Of a stretch of DNA of 64,000 bases, positions 306 through 39,940 are shown piece by piece; position 1 is the first letter of the stretch, and the number at the start of each line of letters is the position of its first letter. The notes under the pieces were generated by a model. It saw only the letters and a program-made list of their open reading frames with translations. It was not told the DNA's origin and did no database searches. Source of the DNA: Shigella phage A2; sequence record OP197928; one strand, written 5' to 3'. The translations under genes and the position numbers were made by a program.

Positions 306-790
306 TTTAATTTCCTGCATTCAGTGATAAAATTATTTAAATTTTGAGTATATTTCTTTTCATCAAAAATCTTTTGCTGTCTACGTAACCGCCATGGCAT
401 TTCAATGAACACGCACCATATTCCTGATAGTACTGCTGCTGTAAAAATATTAACAAGTATAATTAAAAGAATCCAATCTTCCGTTCTGCCTACTGGACTT
501 TCTCCAAAGAAGCAAAATACAAATGATGTCACAGGAAAACTAATAATATACCACAGAATAACCTTCTTATCTGTGAACCAATCAGCGTTCGTTAACTTAG
601 CACGACCATTTTGAATACACACGAATTTATCATCTGTTACAGTAGATGGCTTAACTGCTTGATATCCCATTCTAAACTCCCTAATTAATCGTTTCTTTGT
701 ATCTTCAGAACAGCCGCTCCAGTCAACTCTATCGACTGAAATGCCATCGTCCCCATCATCTAAATCATACCAGCGAGTTTTTAAAATCAT
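302..790 (-). CDS. hypothetical membrane protein (positional equivalent of T4 e.2)
   Basis: 162-aa ORF with hydrophobic segment WILLIILVNIFTAAVLSGIWCVF; ATGA overlap with nudE. Confidence 0.6.
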   Translation of the reverse strand: MILKTRWYDLDDGDDGISVDRVDWSGCSEDTKKRLIREFRMGYQAVKPSTVTDDKFVCIQNGRAKLTNADWFTDKKVILWYIISFPVTSFVFCFFGESPVGRTEDWILLIILVNIFTAAVLSGIWCVFIEMPWRLRRQQKIFDEKKYTQNLNNFITECRKLK

Positions 791-1161
791 TTGATTTTCC
801 TACAATCATTCACGAATTCTTTCATTGATTCATTTTCAATATAAGACATGTAGTTATTATATTCTTTTAATTGTATTTTGTAATCCTTTTTTCTTTGCCA
901 ATTTATTTTAAAATTATCATAATGAAAATATAAAATGATACTAAAGAATGAAAATAATGAAATTGCTATAGTATAATGAAGTTCACTCCAAACTTCTATT
1001 ATATCTACTATACCGCTGACGTTACTGCGGATGTTTAAAATAATACAGTCAATCATTAATCCAATAAGACTACCAGCAAGAGCTGCAGCCAACGCCACAG
1101 CAAAAATTAAAAATGACTCAGAAAAAGAATATTTGACTTTATTTAGTTTTGGCTTTTGCAT
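787..1161 (-). CDS. hypothetical membrane protein (e.3 position)
   Basis: 124-aa ORF, hydrophobic stretch LIFAVALAAALAGSLIGLMIDCIIL; 4-nt overlap with downstream gene. Confidence 0.6.
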   Translation of the reverse strand: MQKPKLNKVKYSFSESFLIFAVALAAALAGSLIGLMIDCIILNIRSNVSGIVDIIEVWSELHYTIAISLFSFFSIILYFHYDNFKINWQRKKDYKIQLKEYNNYMSYIENESMKEFVNDCRKIK

Positions 1162-1886
1162 CGTGATTCCTTAACAAATTTCATAATTTCATTAAATTCA
1201 TACACATTTAGTTTAAGCTGGTGTTCCTTTTTAATCTTTTTACACTGAGCTTTCCATTCACGTACACGTTTACGATAATGCCTTCCTTGATACCAATATC
1301 CTACCCAATTTACAGGTACCAATAAAAATGGAACTACTAATGGAAGAATTAATACTAACAAAAATATTACGCCAGATTCAATATCAGTCATAAAGTCTAT
1401 AACCATTCCAACAATCAATAGAATTACAAATGATATAGCTGTCACAGGACCTATTAATACATCAGTAGGAATTAGCTGACGCTTTAGTTCATACTTCACA
1501 GGTTCACTTGGAAGGTATAGTAAATTTGACTTTTGTAAATTACGTTTAAACCATGCGTCACTTAAACTATAAACGCCAAGATAATCATAATCGTCGTTTA
1601 AATAACAAACCGTCCATTCAGGAGAAATGAAATCAGTAAATTCAACATCAAAATCACATGTCAATGAATGAATTGATTCAATACTTTTAATGAGTATTCC
1701 AGGACGTATTAAAGACTTTTTACCTTTATAAAATCCAGAAAGACTTTCATCAGTTTCATATGAAGACCCCCAATAGTAATTACGTCCTTCTGCCATACGT
1801 TTAAGAGCATTTAGTAATTGATCTGGAACATCAACCTGTCTTTGGAACTCTTCAAACATTGAATTGAAATCACTTTGCATTTTCAT
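1143..1886 (-). CDS. hypothetical membrane protein (e.4 position)
   Basis: 247-aa ORF with long hydrophobic region VTAISFVILLIVGMVIDF...FLLVLILPLVVPFLLVPV. Confidence 0.6.
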   Translation of the reverse strand: MKMQSDFNSMFEEFQRQVDVPDQLLNALKRMAEGRNYYWGSSYETDESLSGFYKGKKSLIRPGILIKSIESIHSLTCDFDVEFTDFISPEWTVCYLNDDYDYLGVYSLSDAWFKRNLQKSNLLYLPSEPVKYELKRQLIPTDVLIGPVTAISFVILLIVGMVIDFMTDIESGVIFLLVLILPLVVPFLLVPVNWVGYWYQGRHYRKRVREWKAQCKKIKKEHQLKLNVYEFNEIMKFVKESRCKSQN

Positions 1887-3191: not shown

Positions 3192-3518
3192 TTATTTCAT
3201 ATTATTGAAATATTCTTCTGCGATTTCATCGTTATCATGGTAAACTTTAGAAGACAGTTTAACATAACCTTCAGCAGTGAACATATTAATCACAACCTTT
3301 ACAGTATACCACTGACCATCTTCATTACCCATTACTGCATAGGTTTCAAACATCGGATGGTCAGGACCGATAACTTTAATATCATTCACTGTACGACCGA
3401 AATCTTCTGAAACACATTTCATAAAGAAGTTGAACAGCTCACCGTAATTATCCATTTCATTCTCCAAGTTGTTTTCTGTATCAGTAGTTGATAGTTGTAT
3501 AGTACCATGGAAGGACAA
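3192..3518 (-). CDS. hypothetical protein (e.8 position)
   Basis: 108-aa ORF. Confidence 0.55.
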   Translation of the reverse strand: MSFHGTIQLSTTDTENNLENEMDNYGELFNFFMKCVSEDFGRTVNDIKVIGPDHPMFETYAVMGNEDGQWYTVKVVINMFTAEGYVKLSSKVYHDNDEIAEEYFNNMK

Positions 3519-3660
3519 GGATGTAAACTGTTTTGTGAAAAAATTTTTAAAAAGTTTTGGGGAATTCTAGGGCAGGGAGGGGAAATCAAAGGATAGGATA
3601 ATATATTATAAAGGGTAGAAACTAAATGATGCCTAGAGAGGCCCGGAAAGGCCTAGATAC

Positions 3661-3686
3661 CAAAAACCCCTATCATTTAGATAGGG
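3661..3686 (-). terminator. hairpin (ccctatc/gataggg stem) followed by U-tract on minus-strand RNA
   Basis: 7-bp perfect inverted repeat 3668-3674/3680-3686, loop attta; minus RNA continues GUUUUUG; lies just downstream of IP-like gene 3695..4258. Confidence 0.5.
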
Positions 3687-3694
3687 ATTTAAAA

Positions 3695-4258
3695 TTATTT
3701 ACCTAGTTTAGTTATTATAGCTTCTGCGGCAGCTTTTAGCTTAGATGCGGTGTTAATACGATTTTTAATTTCAGTATACGCATCGCCAAGAACATCAAGG
3801 CTATCAGAATAAACACTTACACTATTGCGTTCGCTATTTGAAATAGAACCTTTAGTTTTACGTTCAAAATCGGTGTACACGTCTTGAAGATCACGGGCTG
3901 CCTTCTTTGCATCATCCAATGCATCAAGAGCTTTATTCAAAGCATTAACATATTTTTTAGTGTCGAACATATTCTTAGAAATTTTAACAGGTGCACGTTC
4001 AGGAGTAGCTAAGGCAGATTTAGGAACCTGAGCGCCAGATGCCAATTTCTTAGAAATTTTGAAAAATGCTTTATTGAAACTATTTTCTTGACTCATCGTA
4101 AAAGAACTATTATCAATGTTATACATTTCAATAGCTTTAGCTTTCCACTTAAGAAAATCGCCACGGTCTTTTGGGTCCAAGTGGAAGAATACTTTAGTAA
4201 GATCTGCTTCAGATGGTAATTTTGCTGCTTCGGTTAAAAATTCGGCGTAGGTTTTCAT
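3695..4258 (-). CDS. internal-protein-like head protein with capsid targeting sequence (IP family)
   Basis: 187 aa; N-terminus MKTYAEFLTE|A matches the T4 internal-protein capsid targeting sequence (MKTYQEFIAE, gp21 protease site after L/I-x-E). Confidence 0.7.
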   Translation of the reverse strand: MKTYAEFLTEAAKLPSEADLTKVFFHLDPKDRGDFLKWKAKAIEMYNIDNSSFTMSQENSFNKAFFKISKKLASGAQVPKSALATPERAPVKISKNMFDTKKYVNALNKALDALDDAKKAARDLQDVYTDFERKTKGSISNSERNSVSVYSDSLDVLGDAYTEIKNRINTASKLKAAAEAIITKLGK

Positions 4259-4339
4259 TTAAAATCCTTGAAATAATTTATTGGTTATTAATTATTTATC
4301 ACGTTGTTATATGTAACAGCATTCTCCGAGCGATTCAAA

Positions 4340-4369
4340 CTAAAAAGCCCCAACCTTTCTGTCGGGGCT
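4340..4369 (-). terminator. rho-independent terminator downstream of IP-like gene
   Basis: Minus RNA: AGCCCCGACAGAAAGGUUGGGGCU followed by UUUUUAG; the 20-mer ctaaaaagccccaacctttc recurs at 4896-4915. Confidence 0.7.
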
Positions 4370-4376
4370 AAGAATG

Positions 4377-4850
4377 TTATTTAATTTGCTTAGCAGACCA
4401 AATGCGGTCTTTGATAATTTTTTGGATGTCTTCAACATACTCAAGAGAGTGAACATGTGGGTTATCTTTGAAACTATAAGCACGAGCTAGCTTTTGGCCT
4501 TCAGTTTTGATTACTAAAAGCTCTTTAAGGATAGCTTCATATTTGGAGATAATTCCTTTAACAATATTTTTCTCTTGTGCGACTTTAGGATCTGCTTTAG
4601 GAGCAGGTTTACCCGAAGCCTTTGCAAAAGCAGCGCCAGTAGCAACTAAACTTTTCCAGGCCATACTAACTGCATTTCCCGTAAATCCTTCCGCTTTCAT
4701 GTCGCGTGCGAACTGGAATCGCGATTCATCAGAAGCATCTTTGTAAGAATATTTACCCGCTGCAATGGCTGCTTTTGCGACAGCTTGAATTTCGGTGCTA
4801 GATGCTTCATTTAACACCGCTTCATTTAAAAATTGAGTATATGATTTCAT
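4377..4850 (-). CDS. internal-protein-like head protein with capsid targeting sequence (IP family)
   Basis: 157 aa; N-terminus MKSYTQFLNE|A = CTS-like; A/K-rich body. Confidence 0.7.
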   Translation of the reverse strand: MKSYTQFLNEAVLNEASSTEIQAVAKAAIAAGKYSYKDASDESRFQFARDMKAEGFTGNAVSMAWKSLVATGAAFAKASGKPAPKADPKVAQEKNIVKGIISKYEAILKELLVIKTEGQKLARAYSFKDNPHVHSLEYVEDIQKIIKDRIWSAKQIK

Positions 4851-4887
4851 CTTATTTCCTGTTTTAATTTGTAGATTTAATATACTT

Positions 4888-4895
4888 ATTTATAC
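4888..4895 (-). promoter_or_regulatory. T4-type late promoter TATAAATA (minus strand) upstream of IP-like gene 4377..4850
   Basis: plus-strand tatttata = TATAAATA on minus, about 40 nt upstream of ATG at 4850. Confidence 0.5.
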
Positions 4896-4925
4896 TAAAA
4901 AGCCCCAACCTTTCGGCTGGGGCTA
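4896..4925 (-). terminator. rho-independent terminator closing the tRNA/stable-RNA transcription unit
   Basis: Minus RNA: AGCCCCAGCCGAAAGGUUGGGGCU + UUUUUAG; near-duplicate of terminator at 4340-4369. Confidence 0.65.
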
Positions 4926-4976
4926 AGCCTTGCGGCAACCTTGTCGGGGTTCCACCTGCTAAGGCAAGTGTTTGTA

Positions 4977-5068
4977 CGAAACGCCGGGATTCGAACCCGG
5001 TTATCAAGCAGTTGACGCTACTCAATATTTTTAAAAGGCCATATCTCGACCATATCCGAACGTTCCGT
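4977..5068 (-). ncRNA. tRNA-like element / stable small RNA (resembles T4 species-1/2 RNA; not a canonical tRNA)
   Basis: Minus strand has a perfect T-arm CCGGG-UUCGAAU-CCCGG (4987-5003 region) and a 7-bp acceptor-like pairing CGGAACG/CGUUUCG (5062-5068 with 4978-4984), but a 60-nt body with no recognisable anticodon arm and no CCA. Confidence 0.4.
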
Positions 5069-5235
5069 CAAAAACGCTACTCGGCTTACGGCAAAGATAT
5101 TTCCTCGAATCGATAATTCGGTGCGCCGTTTCTGCTGTGATATAAGGGGACATTAACAAATCATAAAGATTTATTAATGCCAGTCCTTAAACAGGGAACA
5201 TCAGTCCGACGACTTACCGGTAGCGACCCGGTTTC

Positions 5236-5586
5236 TTAATATTCTTTTAAAGCATCAATCTGTTCACGGCGTTTACGCCATAAATCAATTGCTTCATACG
5301 CAGATTCAGCATTTCGAATTAGCCGGCATTTATGTAAAGACTTATGATTTTGATATTGTGTAGATAATGGAATTGTATCTAAAAGGTCTTTACGATCAAA
5401 GTATTCGTAACCATCTAAACCAAATGAACGATTTTTGAGAAATTGCCAATGGCCAAATTCATTTTCAACATAAACATAATCTGCATGCTGATAAAGTAAA
5501 TTAATTACACGTTCAGAAATAACAGTATCATTATGATTAAAATAGAATGTTAAATCATGAACTACTAAATAAACATTACCTTTCAT
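5236..5586 (-). CDS. hypothetical protein embedded in the tRNA/stable-RNA operon
   Basis: 116-aa ORF between tRNA-Arg and the tRNA-like RNA; no recognisable motif (no GIY-YIG/HNH signature). Confidence 0.5.
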   Translation of the reverse strand: MKGNVYLVVHDLTFYFNHNDTVISERVINLLYQHADYVYVENEFGHWQFLKNRSFGLDGYEYFDRKDLLDTIPLSTQYQNHKSLHKCRLIRNAESAYEAIDLWRKRREQIDALKEY

Positions 5587-5602: not shown

Positions 5603-5678
5603 TGGTCGAGGCAGTAGGGATCGAACCTACGACCTAGGACTTAGAAGGTCCTTGCTCTTCCTTCTGAGCTATGCCCCG
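5603..5678 (-). tRNA. tRNA-Arg (anticodon UCU)
   Basis: Hand-folded cloverleaf on minus strand: acceptor CGGGGCA/UGCCUCG, anticodon loop CUUCUAA, T-loop GGUUCGAUCC, encoded CCA. Confidence 0.85.
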
Positions 5679-5682
5679 TAAT

Positions 5683-5758
5683 TGGGGTGACCGATGGGAG
5701 TCGAACCCATGACTACGAGAATCACAATCTCGAGTTCTACCAACTGAACTACGGCCAC
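5683..5758 (-). tRNA. tRNA-His (anticodon GUG)
   Basis: Acceptor GUGGCCG/CGGUCAC, anticodon stem CGAGA/UCUCG, loop UUGUGAU, T-arm AUGGG-UUCGACU-CCCAU, discriminator C + CCA; no encoded G(-1). Confidence 0.75.
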
Positions 5759-5872
5759 ATTAATATCTACTCCAACAATCATGATGTCTTCACACGAAAT
5801 TAAGAGAAGAGTGATCAGTTCAACCCCTATAATCGCGTCAAGTAGATATTAATGTGACAGTTGTCACAAATT

Positions 5873-5947
5873 TGGCGGACGTGATAGGATTCGAACCTAT
5901 AACCAATCGCTTAACAGGCGATCGCTCTGCCATTGAGCTACACATCC
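5873..5947 (-). tRNA. tRNA-Asn (anticodon GUU)
   Basis: Acceptor GGAUGUG/CACGUCC, anticodon stem AUCGC/GCGAU, loop CUGUUAA, T-loop UUCGAAU, CCA encoded. Confidence 0.8.
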
Positions 5948-5951
5948 AAAT

Positions 5952-6038
5952 TGGTGGGGAGTGGTGGAGTCGAACCACCCGAGTCGCAATGACAATGGAT
6001 TTACAGTCCACACCGCTACCTCTACGGGATAACTCCCC
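5952..6038 (-). tRNA. tRNA-Tyr (anticodon GUA), class II with long variable arm
   Basis: 87 nt; acceptor GGGGAGU/ACUCCCC perfect, anticodon loop CUGUAAA, T-arm GGUGG-UUCGACU-CCACC, CCA encoded. Confidence 0.8.
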
Positions 6039-6051
6039 TTAATTCTTAATT

Positions 6052-6126
6052 TGGTGGCCCTGGGTGGAATTGAACCACCATCTGGCGATTATGAGTCGCT
6101 TGCTTGAACCTTCCAGCTACAGGGCC
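6052..6126 (-). tRNA. tRNA with CAU anticodon (Ile2/lysidine type as in T4, or elongator Met)
   Basis: Acceptor GGCCCUG/CAGGGCC, anticodon loop CUCAUAA, T-arm GGUGG-UUCAAUU-CCACC, CCA encoded. Confidence 0.8.
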
Positions 6127-6127
6127 T

Positions 6128-6203
6128 TGGTGCTGATTGACGGAATCGAACCGCCGACCTTCTCATTACAAGTGAGTTGCTCTACCTACTGAGCTAAATC
6201 AGC
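6128..6203 (-). tRNA. tRNA-Thr (anticodon UGU)
   Basis: Acceptor GCUGAUU/AAUCAGC, anticodon loop CUUGUAA, T-loop UUCGAUU, CCA encoded; 1-nt spacer to neighbour. Confidence 0.85.
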
Positions 6204-6208
6204 AAAAC

Positions 6209-6298
6209 TGGCGGAGGCGATAGGATTTGAACCTATGAGTCGCCGGAGCGACTGCCGGTTTTCAAGACCGGTGCATTAAACCACTCTGCCACGCCTCC
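6209..6298 (-). tRNA. tRNA-Ser (anticodon UGA), class II
   Basis: 90 nt; acceptor GGAGGCG/CGCCUCC, anticodon stem CCGGU/ACCGG loop CUUGAAA, long variable arm, T-loop UUCAAAU, CCA encoded. Confidence 0.85.
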
Positions 6299-6300
6299 AG

Positions 6301-6374
6301 TCTCCATACAAGGATTTGAACCTTGGACCTCCTGATCCCAAATCAGGCGCTCTACCAAACTGAGCTACACGGAG
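6301..6374 (-). tRNA. tRNA-Pro (anticodon UGG)
   Basis: Acceptor CUCCGUG/UAUGGAG (two G-U pairs), anticodon loop UUUGGGA, T-loop UUCAAAU; CCA not encoded. Confidence 0.8.
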
Positions 6375-6384
6375 TAAATTAAAT

Positions 6385-6458
<74 letters not shown>

Positions 6459-6463
6459 AAATT

Positions 6464-6550
6464 TGGTGCGAGAAGTGGGACTCGAACCCACAAGGAAATC
6501 ATTCCGCAGCATTTTAAGTGCTGTGCCTTTACCAATTTGACCATTCTCGC
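6464..6550 (-). tRNA. tRNA-Leu (anticodon UAA), class II
   Basis: 87 nt; acceptor GCGAGAA/UUCUCGC, anticodon stem CAGCA/UGCUG loop CUUAAAA, long variable arm, T-loop UUCGAGU, CCA encoded. Confidence 0.85.
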
Positions 6551-6551
6551 G

Positions 6552-6624
6552 CTGGGAATAAAGGACTCGAACCTTTGCATCCTGGAATCAAAATCCAGTG
6601 CCTTACCAACTTGGCTAATTCCCA
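6552..6624 (-). tRNA. tRNA-Gln (anticodon UUG)
   Basis: Acceptor UGGGAAU/AUUCCCA, anticodon stem CUGGA/UCCAG loop UUUUGAU, T-loop UUCGAGU; CCA not encoded; first gene of the array (promoter-proximal). Confidence 0.85.
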
Positions 6625-7637: not shown

Positions 7638-7889
7638 TTATTTTTTACGAAAAATTGATTTATATTTATCAGCCCATTTCTCAATGACTTTTGCCGGGCC
7701 ATAGATAACAAAGTAATCGCCAAACTCTTCACCACCGAGTTGACCGAAATCATCTAATGCATCACGAAGAACTCCATGAGGCATTTCACCCATTTTATCT
7801 TTCTTGCCAGTGTAAATAAACTCAACTTTTACATCAGCAGTTTCAGCAATAAATTCTTGATACGTTTTCATTTTGTTCTCCAATTTCAC
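7638..7889 (-). CDS. ipI: internal protein I-like small head protein with capsid targeting sequence
   Basis: 83 aa; N-terminus MKTYQEFIAE|T is the T4 internal-protein CTS; position between tRNA region and 57B as for T4 ipI; body not confirmed as a T4 IPI ortholog. Confidence 0.7.
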   Translation of the reverse strand: MKLENKMKTYQEFIAETADVKVEFIYTGKKDKMGEMPHGVLRDALDDFGQLGGEEFGDYFVIYGPAKVIEKWADKYKSIFRKK

Positions 7890-36453: not shown

Positions 36454-36878
36454 TGCTTCTGATCCCTGAAACTCATGAATTAGTTCTCGAGAATGTCGAA
36501 GCACTTATTCCTGAAGCACAGGGTCGCTTTGACGAATTGTCTTCTGCTTTAAATAAAGACGATATAAATAAAATTATCGAGAATATGCTTGATGATGAAA
36601 CTGATTTAGCGGTTGCATTAGCTTCTATTAATGAAAATATGCCGTTAAATGAATTTATCGTTAAACATGTTTCTGCCCGTGGTGAAATTACTCGCACTAA
36701 AGATCGCAAAACCCGCGAACGTAATGCATTTCAAACTACCGGGTTGTCTAAAGCAAAACGTAGACAAATTGCTCGTAAAGCTACCAAAACGAAGATTGCC
36801 AATCCAGCAGGTCAATCTCGTGCTCAGCGTAAGCGTAAAAAAGCTCTTAAACGCCGTAAAGCATTAGGATTAAGCTAA
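36453..36878 (+). CDS. 68: prohead core protein gp68
   Basis: 141 aa, basic C-terminus; position between 67 and 21. Confidence 0.9.
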
Positions 36879-37516
36879 TGAATGAACCCCAATTACTAAT
36901 TGAAACTTGGGGTCAACCTGGCGAAATTATTGATGGTGTGCCAATGCTTGAATCCCACGATGGAAAAGACTTAGGTTTAAAACCTGGTTTATACATCGAA
37001 GGAATATTCATGCAAGCGGAAGTCGTCAATAGAAATAAACGTCTTTATCCAAAACGCATATTAGAAAAAGCGGTAAAAGACTATATCAATGAGCAAGTTT
37101 TAACTAAACAAGCTCTCGGAGAATTAAATCATCCTCCACGCGCTAATGTTGACCCGATGCAAGCCGCTATCATTATAGAAGATATGTGGTGGAAAGGAAA
37201 TGACGTATACGGACGAGCTCGTGTTATTGAAGGTGACCATGGTCCTGGAGATAAATTAGCAGCTAATATTCGTGCCGGATGGATTCCAGGAGTTTCTTCT
37301 CGTGGATTAGGTTCATTGACTGACACAAATAAAGGTTATCGTATCGTAAACGAAGGATTCAAATTAACTGTAGGTGTTGATGCAGTATGGGGTCCAAGTG
37401 CTCCAGATGCATGGGTAACTCCTAAGGAAATTACCGAATCACAGACGGCGGAAGCCGATACAAGTGCCGATGACGCCTATATGGCTCTCGCAGAGGCCAT
37501 GAAAAAAGCGTTATAA
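36878..37516 (+). CDS. 21: prohead core protein and maturation protease gp21
   Basis: 212 aa (T4 gp21 length); position upstream of scaffold gene 22. Confidence 0.93.
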   Translation: MNEPQLLIETWGQPGEIIDGVPMLESHDGKDLGLKPGLYIEGIFMQAEVVNRNKRLYPKRILEKAVKDYINEQVLTKQALGELNHPPRANVDPMQAAIIIEDMWWKGNDVYGRARVIEGDHGPGDKLAANIRAGWIPGVSSRGLGSLTDTNKGYRIVNEGFKLTVGVDAVWGPSAPDAWVTPKEITESQTAEADTSADDAYMALAEAMKKAL

Positions 37517-37546: not shown

Positions 37547-38356
37547 ATGCTTAAAGAACAACTGATTGCTGAAGCGCAAAAAATTGATGCTTCCGTTGCT
37601 CTTGATAGTATTTTCGAATCAGTTAATATTTCTCCGGAAGCAAAAGAAACTTTCGGCACTGTATTCGAAGCTACCGTCAAGCAGCACGCCGTTAAATTAG
37701 CTGAATCTCATATCGCTAAAATTGCTGAAAAAGCAGAAGAAGAAGTAGAAAAAAATAAAGAAGAAGCCGAAGAAAAAGCTGAGAAGAAAATCGCTGAGCA
37801 AGCTTCTAAATTCATCGACCATCTTGCGAAAGAATGGCTCGCTGAAAATAAATTAGCAGTTGATAAAGGCATCAAAGCCGAACTGTTTGAATCCATGCTT
37901 GGTGGATTAAAAGAGCTCTTTGTTGAACACAACGTTGTTGTTCCAGAAGAATCAGTTGATGTTGTAGCTGAAATGGAAGAAGAGCTGCAAGAACATAAAG
38001 AAGAATCAGCTCGTCTGTTCGAAGAACTCAATAAGCGTGACGCATATATCAATTATGTGCAGCGTGAAGTGGCATTGAGCGAAAGTACTAAAGATCTGAC
38101 TGAGTCTCAAAAAGAAAAAGTCTCTGCTCTGGTCGAAGGTATGGATTATTCAGATGAATTCTCAAGTAAATTGAGTGCCATCGTAGAAATGGTGAAGAAG
38201 TCTAATAAAGATGAAAGCACTATTACTGAGGGTATAAATACTCCTGATACTGAAGCAGCCGGACTGAATTTCGTCACTGAAGCTGTAGAAGATAAAGCTG
38301 CACCTGGTGCAGAAGATATTGTAAGTGTATATGCGAAAGTCGCATCTCGTTTCTAA
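37547..38356 (+). CDS. 22: prohead core scaffold protein gp22
   Basis: 269 aa, highly acidic/helical (E/A/K-rich). Confidence 0.93.
   Translation: MLKEQLIAEAQKIDASVALDSIFESVNISPEAKETFGTVFEATVKQHAVKLAESHIAKIAEKAEEEVEKNKEEAEEKAEKKIAEQASKFIDHLAKEWLAENKLAVDKGIKAELFESMLGGLKELFVEHNVVVPEESVDVVAEMEEELQEHKEESARLFEELNKRDAYINYVQREVALSESTKDLTESQKEKVSALVEGMDYSDEFSSKLSAIVEMVKKSNKDESTITEGINTPDTEAAGLNFVTEAVEDKAAPGAEDIVSVYAKVASRF
38233..38240 (+). promoter_or_regulatory. late promoter TATAAATA inside 3' end of gene 22 (candidate gene 23 promoter)
   Basis: exact TATAAATA. Confidence 0.45.
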
Positions 38357-38374: not shown

Positions 38375-39940
38375 ATGACTATCAAAACTAAAGCTGAACT
38401 TTTGAACAAATGGAAACCATTACTGGAAGGTGAAGGTTTACCGGAAATTGCTAATAGCAAACAAGCGATTATCGCTAAAATCTTTGAAAACCAGGAAAAA
38501 GATTTCCAGACAGCTCCAGAGTACAAAGACGAAAAAATTGCTCAGGCGTTCGGTTCTTTCTTAACAGAAGCTGAAATCGGTGGTGATCACGGTTACAACG
38601 CTACTAACATTGCTGCTGGTCAGACTTCTGGCGCAGTAACTCAGATTGGCCCAGCTGTTATGGGTATGGTACGTCGTGCTATTCCTAACCTGATTGCTTT
38701 CGATATTTGTGGTGTTCAGCCGATGAACAGCCCGACTGGCCAGGTATTCGCACTGCGTGCAGTATATGGTAAAGACCCAATCGCTTCCGGTGCTAAAGAA
38801 GCATTCCACCCAATGTATGGTCCAGATGCAATGTTCTCTGGTCAGGGTGCTGCTAAGAAATTCCCAGCTTTGGCTGCTAGTACACAAACCGTTGTGGGTG
38901 ATATCTATACTCACTTCTTCCAGGAAACTGGTACTGTGTATCTGCAAGCTTCCGCTGTAGTAACAATCGATGCTAGTGCTAACGATGCAACTAAACTGGA
39001 TGCTGAAATTAAGAAACAAATGGAAGCTGGCGTACTGGTAGAAATCGCTGAAGGTATGGCTACTTCTATCGCTGAACTCCAGGAAGGTTTCAACGGTTCT
39101 ACCGATAACCCATGGAATGAAATGGGCTTCCGTATCGATAAACAAGTTATCGAAGCTAAATCTCGTCAGCTGAAAGCTGCTTACTCTATCGAATTAGCAC
39201 AAGACCTCCGCGCTGTTCACGGTATGGATGCTGATGCTGAACTGTCTGGTATTCTGGCTACCGAAATCATGCTGGAAATCAACCGCGAAGTTGTTGATTG
39301 GATTAACTACTCAGCTCAGGTTGGTAAATCTGGTATGACCCTGACTCCGGGTTCTAAAGCTGGCGTATTTGACTTCCAGGATCCGATTGATATTCGTGGT
39401 GCTCGCTGGGCGGGTGAATCCTTTAAAGCTCTGTTGTTCCAGATTGACAAAGAAGCAGTTGAAATTGCTCGTCAGACCGGTCGCGGTGAAGGTAACTTCA
39501 TTATCGCTTCCCGTAACGTAGTTAACGTTCTGGCTTCAGTTGATACTGGCATTTCTTATGCTGCACAGGGTCTGGCTACCGGCTTTAACACTGATACTAC
39601 CAAGTCAGTATTTGCTGGTGTTCTGGGTGGTAAATACCGTGTATATATCGACCAGTATGCTAAACAGGATTATTTCACTGTAGGTTATAAAGGTCCGAAC
39701 GAAATGGATGCTGGTATTTACTACGCTCCATATGTAGCTCTGACTCCGCTGCGTGGTTCCGATCCGAAGAACTTCCAACCAGTAATGGGATTCAAAACTC
39801 GTTACGGTATCGGTATCAACCCATTTGCAGAATCCGCTGCTCAGGCTCCGGCTTCTCGCATCCAGAGCGGTATGCCTTCTATTCTGAACAGCCTTGGTAA
39901 GAACGCTTACTTCCGCCGTGTATATGTTAAAGGTATCTAA
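38375..39940 (+). CDS. 23: major capsid protein gp23
   Basis: 521 aa; N-terminal propeptide ending ...FLTEAE|IGGDHGYNATNIAAGQ (gp21 cleavage site) recognised as T4 gp23. Confidence 0.98.
   Translation: MTIKTKAELLNKWKPLLEGEGLPEIANSKQAIIAKIFENQEKDFQTAPEYKDEKIAQAFGSFLTEAEIGGDHGYNATNIAAGQTSGAVTQIGPAVMGMVRRAIPNLIAFDICGVQPMNSPTGQVFALRAVYGKDPIASGAKEAFHPMYGPDAMFSGQGAAKKFPALAASTQTVVGDIYTHFFQETGTVYLQASAVVTIDASANDATKLDAEIKKQMEAGVLVEIAEGMATSIAELQEGFNGSTDNPWNEMGFRIDKQVIEAKSRQLKAAYSIELAQDLRAVHGMDADAELSGILATEIMLEINREVVDWINYSAQVGKSGMTLTPGSKAGVFDFQDPIDIRGARWAGESFKALLFQIDKEAVEIARQTGRGEGNFIIASRNVVNVLASVDTGISYAAQGLATGFNTDTTKSVFAGVLGGKYRVYIDQYAKQDYFTVGYKGPNEMDAGIYYAPYVALTPLRGSDPKNFQPVMGFKTRYGIGINPFAESAAQAPASRIQSGMPSILNSLGKNAYFRRVYVKGI

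Follow-up and report, generated by a model that had tools for sequence, protein, structure and literature searches.

Part of the genome of Shigella phage A2 (sequence record OP197928) was analyzed as a stretch of 64,000 nucleotides, which is termed here the window. Between the homolog of the T4 gene e.8 and the gene for the stable RNA rnaC, the window carries two open reading frames (ORFs) on the minus strand: ORF1 (positions 3695..4258), with a chain length of 187 amino acids, and ORF2 (positions 4377..4850), with a chain length of 157 amino acids. Both translated sequences begin with an N-terminal tag that resembles the capsid targeting sequence found in T4 internal proteins (Ips). The tag is MKTYAEFLTE/A in ORF1 (encoded at 4229-4258) and MKSYTQFLNE/A in ORF2 (encoded at 4821-4850), where the slash marks the predicted cleavage position. 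It is well supported that ORF1 and ORF2 are packaged as internal proteins that lie beyond the T4 set.

For comparison, the N-terminus of T4 IPII and IPIII is MKTYQEFIAEA. The tags of both ORFs end in L-x-E followed by a small residue, i.e. L-T-E/A in ORF1 and L-N-E/A in ORF2, and in ORF2 a further cut might occur behind VLNE (residue 15). Mullaney and Black, in 1996, reportedly gave the gp21 cleavage consensus as (L/I)-x-E. Removal of the tag is expected to be the task of the gp21 prohead core protease, whose gene is at 36878..37516 (+) of the window (PF03420, 1.5e-111). The predicted mature proteins have sizes of 19.6 kDa (ORF1) and 16.0 kDa (ORF2); both have an isoelectric point (pI) of ~9.5 and are cysteine-free, like IPII and IPIII. 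The 5′ ends of the two open reading frames, encompassing the ribosome-binding site (RBS) and the tag codons, form a 42-nt direct repeat (termed D2) with 71% identity.

The window was scanned in all six frames for the pattern MK.[YF]..F..E at the start of open reading frames of at least 60 aa. This shows three genes in 64 kb, namely ORF1, ORF2 and an open reading frame at 7638..7871 (-), compared with none in 200 shuffles. The third gene is at the classical ipI locus; it encodes 77 aa, starts with MKTYQEFIAE/T and matches phrog_8111, annotated as "internal virion protein" (5e-51). The product of this gene is unrelated to T4 IPI, and its mature pI of 6.5 is near neutral, unlike that of other Ips. 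In the nearest relative of the window, the ipII/ipIII locus holds Ip4 and Ip10 and the ipI locus a single Ip, so that this relative has five tag-bearing genes. The possibility that ORF1 and ORF2 are replacements of ipII and ipIII is ruled out by the presence of Ip4 and Ip10 at that locus in the nearest relative.

The arrangement of the locus is best followed in the direction of transcription. The end of rnaC is followed by the terminator TTAGCCCCAGCCGAAAGGTTGGGGCTTTTT, then by AG-TATAAATA, 36 nt that include AGGA, and ORF2. After ORF2 come the terminator TTAGCCCCGACAGAAAGGTTGGGGCTTTTT, a sequence beginning with AGTTTGAATC, the box GATAAATA, 34 nt that include AAGGA, and ORF1. ORF1 is followed by the terminator CCCTATC-TAAAT-GATAGGG-TTTTT, which leads into GGTATCTAGGCC and the early-promoter region of e.8. 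Each gene thus has a promoter, an RBS, a tagged reading frame and a terminator, and forms a self-contained unit.

The box TATAAATA at 4887-4894 (-) is an exact T4-type late promoter box. It stands directly after a run of T residues (T-run), 44 nt upstream of the ORF2 ATG, and the ORF2 RBS (AGGA) is at 4857-4860 (-). There are 23 copies of TATAAATA in the window, where 10 are expected, and the box is present with a similar spacing in phages fHoEco02, fD1, G50 and KpV477. The late-promoter-like box of ORF1, GATAAATA at 4293..4300 (-), matches the consensus at 7 of 8 positions and is 42 nt upstream of the ATG; its counterpart in phage RB69 is AATAAATA. At every locus examined, a late-promoter box is found 34-48 nt upstream of the ATG. 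The late promoters of ORF1 and ORF2 were called solely as consensus matches.

Repeat sequences bracket ORF2. The 20-mer CTAAAAAGCCCCAACCTTTC has exactly two copies in the window, at 4340-4359 and 4895-4914, with 0.01 expected by chance. The full repeat consists of 40 nt (4333-4372 and 4888-4927, 88% identity), and each copy displays a minus-strand hairpin followed by a T-run, the hairpins having z scores of about -3.6. Copy B (4888..4927 (-); hairpin 4901-4924, -20.6 kcal/mol) ends the tRNA/rnaD/rnaC transcription unit and is the counterpart of the single terminator that T4 has at the e.8/rnaC site. Copy A (4333..4372 (-); hairpin 4346-4369, -16.3 kcal/mol) is the ORF2 terminator, whose T-run forms the boundary with the ORF1 cassette. 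The terminator of ORF1 (3659..3690 (-)) has the form AAAUCCCUAUC-UAAAU-GAUAGGGGUUU plus a T-run, with a hairpin at 3664-3690 (-14.6 kcal/mol, z -3.5). It has no relation to the repeat, is annotated as a terminator in phage G50, and joins GGTATCTAGGCC, which in T4 comes after the single terminator.

A further property of the repeat terminators is that their stems (4346-4369, 4901-4924 and homologs at loci L001, L004, L005 and L007) vary near the loop only, with a variable 5′ arm of CCCCAGCC, CCCCGACC or CCCCTTCC against a constant 3′ arm of GGTTGGGG. The outer stem and the T-run are identical among terminator copies and phages, and this stretch is common to every recombination junction.

The original prediction, made from the sequence alone, had described the two tagged open reading frames, which are indeed present on the minus strand at the coordinates it gave. 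It had also described the duplicated 20-mer and the minus-strand late promoter next to ORF2. Both of these exist, with the second 20-mer copy and the promoter box each lying one base away from the positions first assigned (4896-4915 and 4888-4895, respectively). The proposal that both genes are in repeat-bounded cassettes holds for ORF2; in the case of ORF1, the repeat is present on the upstream side only, and the terminator on the downstream side is another one.

A comparison of the e.8/rnaC site among related phages displays four states. In T4, T2, T6 and PST the site is empty and has one terminator, which in T4 is joined to GGTATCTAAGCC. Phages fHoEco02 and fD1 have the ORF2 cassette only, placed between two terminator copies. 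RB69 has the ORF1 cassette only, situated after the first terminator and with the same AGTTTGAATC junction as the window. Both cassettes are present in the window and in phages JLBYU22 and G50. The empty state was read from the sequence in T4 only; for T2, T6 and PST it was deduced from a gap of ~540 nt that the annotation leaves between e.8 and the feature after it, equal to the space of rnaC plus rnaD. The states of fD1, JLBYU22 and G50 were assigned from annotation together with an ORF scan. In every junction read (T4, fHoEco02, RB69 and the window) the breakpoint is the terminator T-run. Since T4, T2, T6 and PST do not have these genes, ORF1 and ORF2 are dispensable accessory genes.

Searches with tblastn show ORF2-like genes in 511 phage records and ORF1-like genes in 164, in one place per genome; all but two of the 164 records match ORF1 with 95-99% identity. 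The ORF2-to-ORF1 junction was found in 127 records and the T4-type empty junction in at most ~100, a census that is approximate because BLAST bridges pieces over the 555-bp cassette (e.g. in H160). The genes are labeled "hypothetical protein" or "Phage protein" in every record row inspected. The same layout is found in a distant genus: Jiaodavirus KpV477 has a hairpin, TATAAATA, a gene starting with MKFKEFLAE/A, and another hairpin.

The DNA identities between the window and Mosigvirus (RB69, phiE142) fall into two groups. ORF2, e.6 and orf116 show 75-80% identity; ORF1 shows 96.5-96.8% and e.8 shows 92-94%. From this difference, ORF2 looks like a long-standing occupant of the site, since lost from the lineages of T4, T2 and T6, and ORF1 together with e.8 looks like a block that was exchanged recently between the genera Tequatrovirus and Mosigvirus.

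Two disrupted homologs were seen. In the RB69 record NC_004928 (L007, 2501..3063) a 1-nt deletion splits the ORF1 homolog into RB69ORF149c and 148c, and in KpV477 (L006, 2495..3028) there is an in-frame TAA within the ORF2 homolog. Each may represent either a laboratory-stock pseudogene or a sequencing error. In addition, a contig similar to Yersinia phage fHe-Yen9-01 (L017, 2922..4037 (+)) has a tandem pair of family members in an order that is reversed relative to the window, with a 189-aa ORF1-like gene (MLQYNEFLKE/S) followed, 9 nt on, by a 178-aa ORF2-like gene.

ORF1 and ORF2 both give full-length hidden Markov model matches to phrog_2280, a family of unknown function (ORF1 1.3e-53, residues 1-181; ORF2 1.2e-60, residues 1-157). 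This PHROG has no assigned function or category, and its link to internal proteins is made in the present analysis. Pfam, NCBIfam and PDB sequence searches with ORF1 and ORF2 gave nothing above noise and no enzyme domain. By BLASTP, neither ORF has similarity to IPI, IPII or IPIII beyond the tag, the alignments being confined to it and a few residues after it; ORF1 against IPII gave an E-value of 0.001 over 37 residues that include the tag, and ORF2 against IPIII gave an E-value of 2.8. In large-database searches, relatives are found only on T4-like contigs of ~165-175 kb, from phages whose hosts are Escherichia, Shigella, Salmonella, Yersinia, Klebsiella and Enterobacter. An exhaustive HMMER search with ORF1 yielded near-identical copies and one 31%-identical relative (P0027), and nothing else.

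The tag is present throughout the family. The pattern M-x-x-[FY]-x-[EDQ]-[FILV]-L-x-E-[AGSQV] opens each of the homologs retrieved, a few having extra residues before the cut. An alignment of 20 sequences, down to 24% identity, has eight columns that are invariant or at least 90% conserved, and these are M1, L8, E10 and five others; among these 20 diverged homologs L8 is invariant and E10 is conserved to at least 90%. Thus the targeting and cleavage signal belongs to the best-conserved parts of the family.

A direct BLASTP comparison of ORF1 with ORF2 aligns the tag alone, and a profile-profile comparison (hhalign) of the two sub-families gives a weak match, with 85% probability, in a C-terminal stretch only. 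The common PHROG match, the similar predicted architecture, the bridging sequences (P0037, P0038 and the 189-aa open reading frame of L017) and the weak hhalign match together suggest a common ancestry, i.e. that ORF1 and ORF2 are distant paralogs. The AlphaFold2 models of the two proteins are built alike, from a flexible tag, a small domain of three helices, a linker rich in Pro and Lys, and a long hairpin of two helices, with a mean predicted local distance difference test score (pLDDT) of 76.8 for ORF2 and 58.4 for ORF1. A small, basic helical protein with no enzyme fold is compatible, as modeled, with a stoichiometric binder or binding inhibitor.

Evidence from virions is available for phage fD1, whose Gp140 differs from ORF2 by two residues. 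Gp140 was scored as particle-associated under the strict threshold of liquid chromatography-tandem mass spectrometry of purified virions (PMC8309999 Table S3). The fD1 proteins of both known Ip loci (g129 and g146) were likewise particle-associated, and the neighbors e.8 (g139) and g138 were not (PMC8309999 Table S3). As to other virion proteomes, the paper on fPS-2/65/90 has no proteome and the paper on UFV13 identified just four gel bands.

The packaging of ORF1 and ORF2 as internal proteins is therefore supported by the tag with its L-x-E site, the late-promoter boxes, the presence of gp21 in the genome, the conservation of the tag in a diverged family, the absence of both genes from T4, T2 and T6, and the finding of the ORF2 ortholog in fD1 virions. 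The original prediction of additional capsid-targeted internal proteins agrees with this. Its counter-possibility, that close homologs are ordinary IPII or IPIII, was checked with a negative result, as no similarity extends beyond the tag. Its notion of a cassette holds for ORF2 and is refined in that the breakpoints are at the terminator T-run and four occupancy states exist.

The following process is proposed. ORF1 and ORF2 would be diverged members of one uncharacterized T-even internal-protein family, each with late transcription driven by a promoter of its own. A capsid targeting sequence of ~10 residues at the N-terminus would bring the protein into the prohead scaffolding core, where the gp21 protease would cut off the tag after L-x-E. 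The mature protein, basic, helical and of 16-20 kDa, may then stay with the DNA in the head and be ejected into the next host cell, where it most likely would bind and block a host defense that acts against incoming modified DNA. The model for such a block is the action of Ip1, Ip2, Ip3 and Bas37_0260 against restriction enzymes of the GmrSD and McrBC types. The cassettes would be gained and lost by recombination at the ~30-nt terminator repeat, giving relatives with none, one or both. As a joint reading, a packaged, gp21-processed and injected family that most likely blocks host defense and is carried in accessory cassettes appears probable, with an appreciable share of doubt.

Function is known for four tag-bearing T-even proteins, and all four inhibit type IV restriction (PMC12373910; bioRxiv 10.1101/2025.11.20.689424). 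Ip1, Ip2 and Ip3 each inhibit a different GmrSD-type enzyme (PMC12373910), and Bas37_0260 inhibits McrBC (bioRxiv 10.1101/2025.11.20.689424). In addition, IPIII is required on strain ECOR17. By analogy with these four proteins, an anti-defense role of ORF1 and ORF2 is plausible. Neither of their N-terminal decapeptides occurs in the text supplementary files of PMC12373910.

Several points weigh against the proposed process. The seven proteins Ip4-10 showed no inhibition on a GmrSD panel (PMC12373910), and therefore anti-restriction activity of an Ip is not guaranteed. The fD1 preparation was not clean, as the threshold was passed by 113 of the 277 phage proteins along with 672 from the host, and the particle-associated list includes DenV, lysozyme and NudE (PMC8309999 Table S3). 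Virion association is supported for the ORF2 ortholog only, and with limited weight. N-terminal processing and injection are presumed for both proteins. The ORF1 promoter box has a consensus mismatch at position 1. With a pLDDT of 58, confidence in the ORF1 model is low, too low for a fold search, and the fold matches obtained are generic helical hairpins, which are uninformative on the target.

Packaged proteins could also have a physical role, i.e. in charge neutralization, packaging or ejection, instead of blocking host defense. The mature pI of ~9.5, the Pro/Lys-rich linker and the 24-31 K+R residues would suit such a role, the lysines of internal proteins contact DNA phosphates (review PMC3012670), and neither a target nor an enzyme fold could be inferred. 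However, T4, T2, T6 and PST package and eject their DNA without ORF1 and ORF2, and IPII and IPIII are equally basic and yet are specific GmrSD inhibitors (PMC12373910). Presence/absence polymorphism together with lateral spread is also typical of host-range or counter-defense genes, so that a physical role is considered unlikely. Somewhat less likely still is that the proteins are injected effectors with another purpose, such as takeover of host processes or competition with co-infecting phages. Every tag-bearing T-even protein with an assigned function to date is anti-restriction, but the pattern of the domains is of relevance: the N-terminal domain is conserved across genera (AGKYSYKD..ESRFQF.RDMKAEGF), and the C-terminal hairpin exists in several highly diverged versions linked by bridging forms. 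This could mean that there is a conserved host target, unlike the fast-evolving GmrSD family.

It is improbable that the proteins are not packaged at all, i.e. that the N-terminus is a relic of ip-gene recombination and the proteins are cytoplasmic late in infection. The direct repeat D2 does show that the 5′ segment can be shared between genes, but M1, L8 and E10 are kept among the eight best-conserved columns of the family down to 24% identity, which speaks for selection on the tag; dedicated late promoters suit the timing of head assembly, and fD1 Gp140 was detected in virions. That the two genes are not real, but reading frames that are in decay or arose by chance in intergenic DNA that varies, has hardly any probability. 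The frame shift in RB69 ORF1 and the in-frame stop in the ORF2 homolog of KpV477 would be in line with this; however, the open reading frames are intact in most of the 164 (ORF1) and 511 (ORF2) matching records, each has its own promoter, RBS and terminator, peptides were detected in fD1, and ORF2 has stayed open at 75% nucleotide identity between genera.

At the protein level, ORF1 and ORF2 would add new families to a class already known, the T-even internal proteins. With T4 IPI, IPII and IPIII (Ip1-3) and with Ip4-Ip10 they have in common the capsid targeting sequence, the L/I-x-E site and the expected dependence on gp21; all of these proteins are small, mostly basic, cysteine-free, dispensable, and variable among related phages. 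ORF1 and ORF2 differ from Ip1-3 in that they have no sequence similarity to them beyond the tag and occupy a third site (e.8/rnaC), not ipI or ipII/ipIII. They are also predicted to be all-helical with two domains; IPI*, in contrast, reportedly consists of two beta-sheets between N- and C-terminal helices. The published account has two Ip loci (PMC12373910), as does the annotation of PST, and no description of e.8/rnaC as an Ip locus was found in the literature examined; a literature search with the names Ip4 and Ip10 yielded only unrelated papers. A close parallel is Bas37_0260, which was also an unannotated T-even gene recognized solely by its N-terminal packaging signal and was then shown to be anti-restriction (HIDEN-SEQ preprint, 10.1101/2025.11.20.689424). 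Bas37_0260 is at the ipI locus, whereas ORF1 and ORF2 are at e.8/rnaC.

The ORF2 cassette also has similarities to promoter-early stem-loop (PeSL) cassettes, in which an ORFan lies between two stem-loop/promoter copies, with a single copy in a relative, the ORFan being gained or lost when the copies recombine (Arbiol et al. 2010, PMC2839356; Comeau et al. 2014, PMC4122927). In the ORF2 cassette, unlike PeSL, the stem-loop is joined to a late TATAAATA box instead of a sigma-70 early or Mot middle promoter, and the cargo is a predicted virion-targeted protein. The ORF2 cassette is thus a late-promoter analogue and not a strict PeSL.

The window belongs to a Tequatrovirus; over bases 3400-5300 it shares 99.6% identity with Escherichia phage JLBYU22, and 95-99% with 238 further T4-like phage records. 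The T4 gene order is kept on the minus strand: tRNA cluster, rnaD, rnaC, ORF2 and ORF1, e.8, e.7 and e.6. To the left of the insertion site is the e.8 homolog (3192..3455 (-), 96.6% identical to T4 e.8), with an early-promoter-like site at 3499-3527 on the e.8 side. To the right are the stable RNAs rnaC (4975-5113 (-), 97.8% identical to T4) and rnaD (5120-5236 (-), 87.3% identical to T4). The gp21 gene is followed on its 3′ side by the genes for the gp22 scaffold (37547..38356 (+)) and then the gp23 major capsid protein (38375..39940 (+)), with PF25623/PF07068 matches in the gp21-gp23 region.

Other differences from T4 are found nearby. A 116-aa open reading frame at 5236..5586 (-) (phrog_3355, unknown function) is between rnaD and tRNA-Arg; in T4 the homing endonuclease segB is on the other side of tRNA-Arg relative to this open reading frame. 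In the tRNA cluster of the window (5603..6624 (-)) there are 11 genes, those for His, Asn, Tyr and Met among them, compared with 8 in T4. At 787..1886 (-), at the position of e.3/e.4/e.5 of JLBYU22 and T4, there are a 124-aa open reading frame and a 247-aa open reading frame with many hydrophobic stretches. The latter has no same-sized counterpart in the JLBYU22 and T4 annotations and marks another variable spot.

A broader reading, which is offered tentatively as a possibility, is that e.8/rnaC is a third Tevenvirinae hotspot for injected effectors and that phrog_2280 supplies inhibitors of defenses that have no known phage antagonist. The late-promoter/terminator module would then act as a plug-in socket for capsid-targeted proteins. 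Possible targets would be, e.g., the active GmrSD subtypes on which none of Ip1-10 worked.

Recent work has shown T-even Ips to act as co-injected inhibitors of type IV restriction with high specificity, Ip1, Ip2, Ip3 and Bas37_0260 being the examples. The published picture is built largely on T2, T4 and T6, all of which have an empty site where ORF1 and ORF2 are located, and this is probably why the family is still annotated as "hypothetical protein". The family occurs by the hundred in sequenced Tequatrovirus and Mosigvirus genomes, of therapeutic as well as environmental phages. In the four-state polymorphism, nature offers an instance of cassettes exchanged at a terminator repeat, together with ready-made isogenic comparisons. 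The locus is mainly of value as a concrete, widespread lead that is amenable to experiments and happens to be missing from the classical model phages. If ORF1 and ORF2 are injected anti-defense proteins, they would be new host-range determinants, relevant to the choice of therapy phages, and new probes for finding the defense systems that they target.

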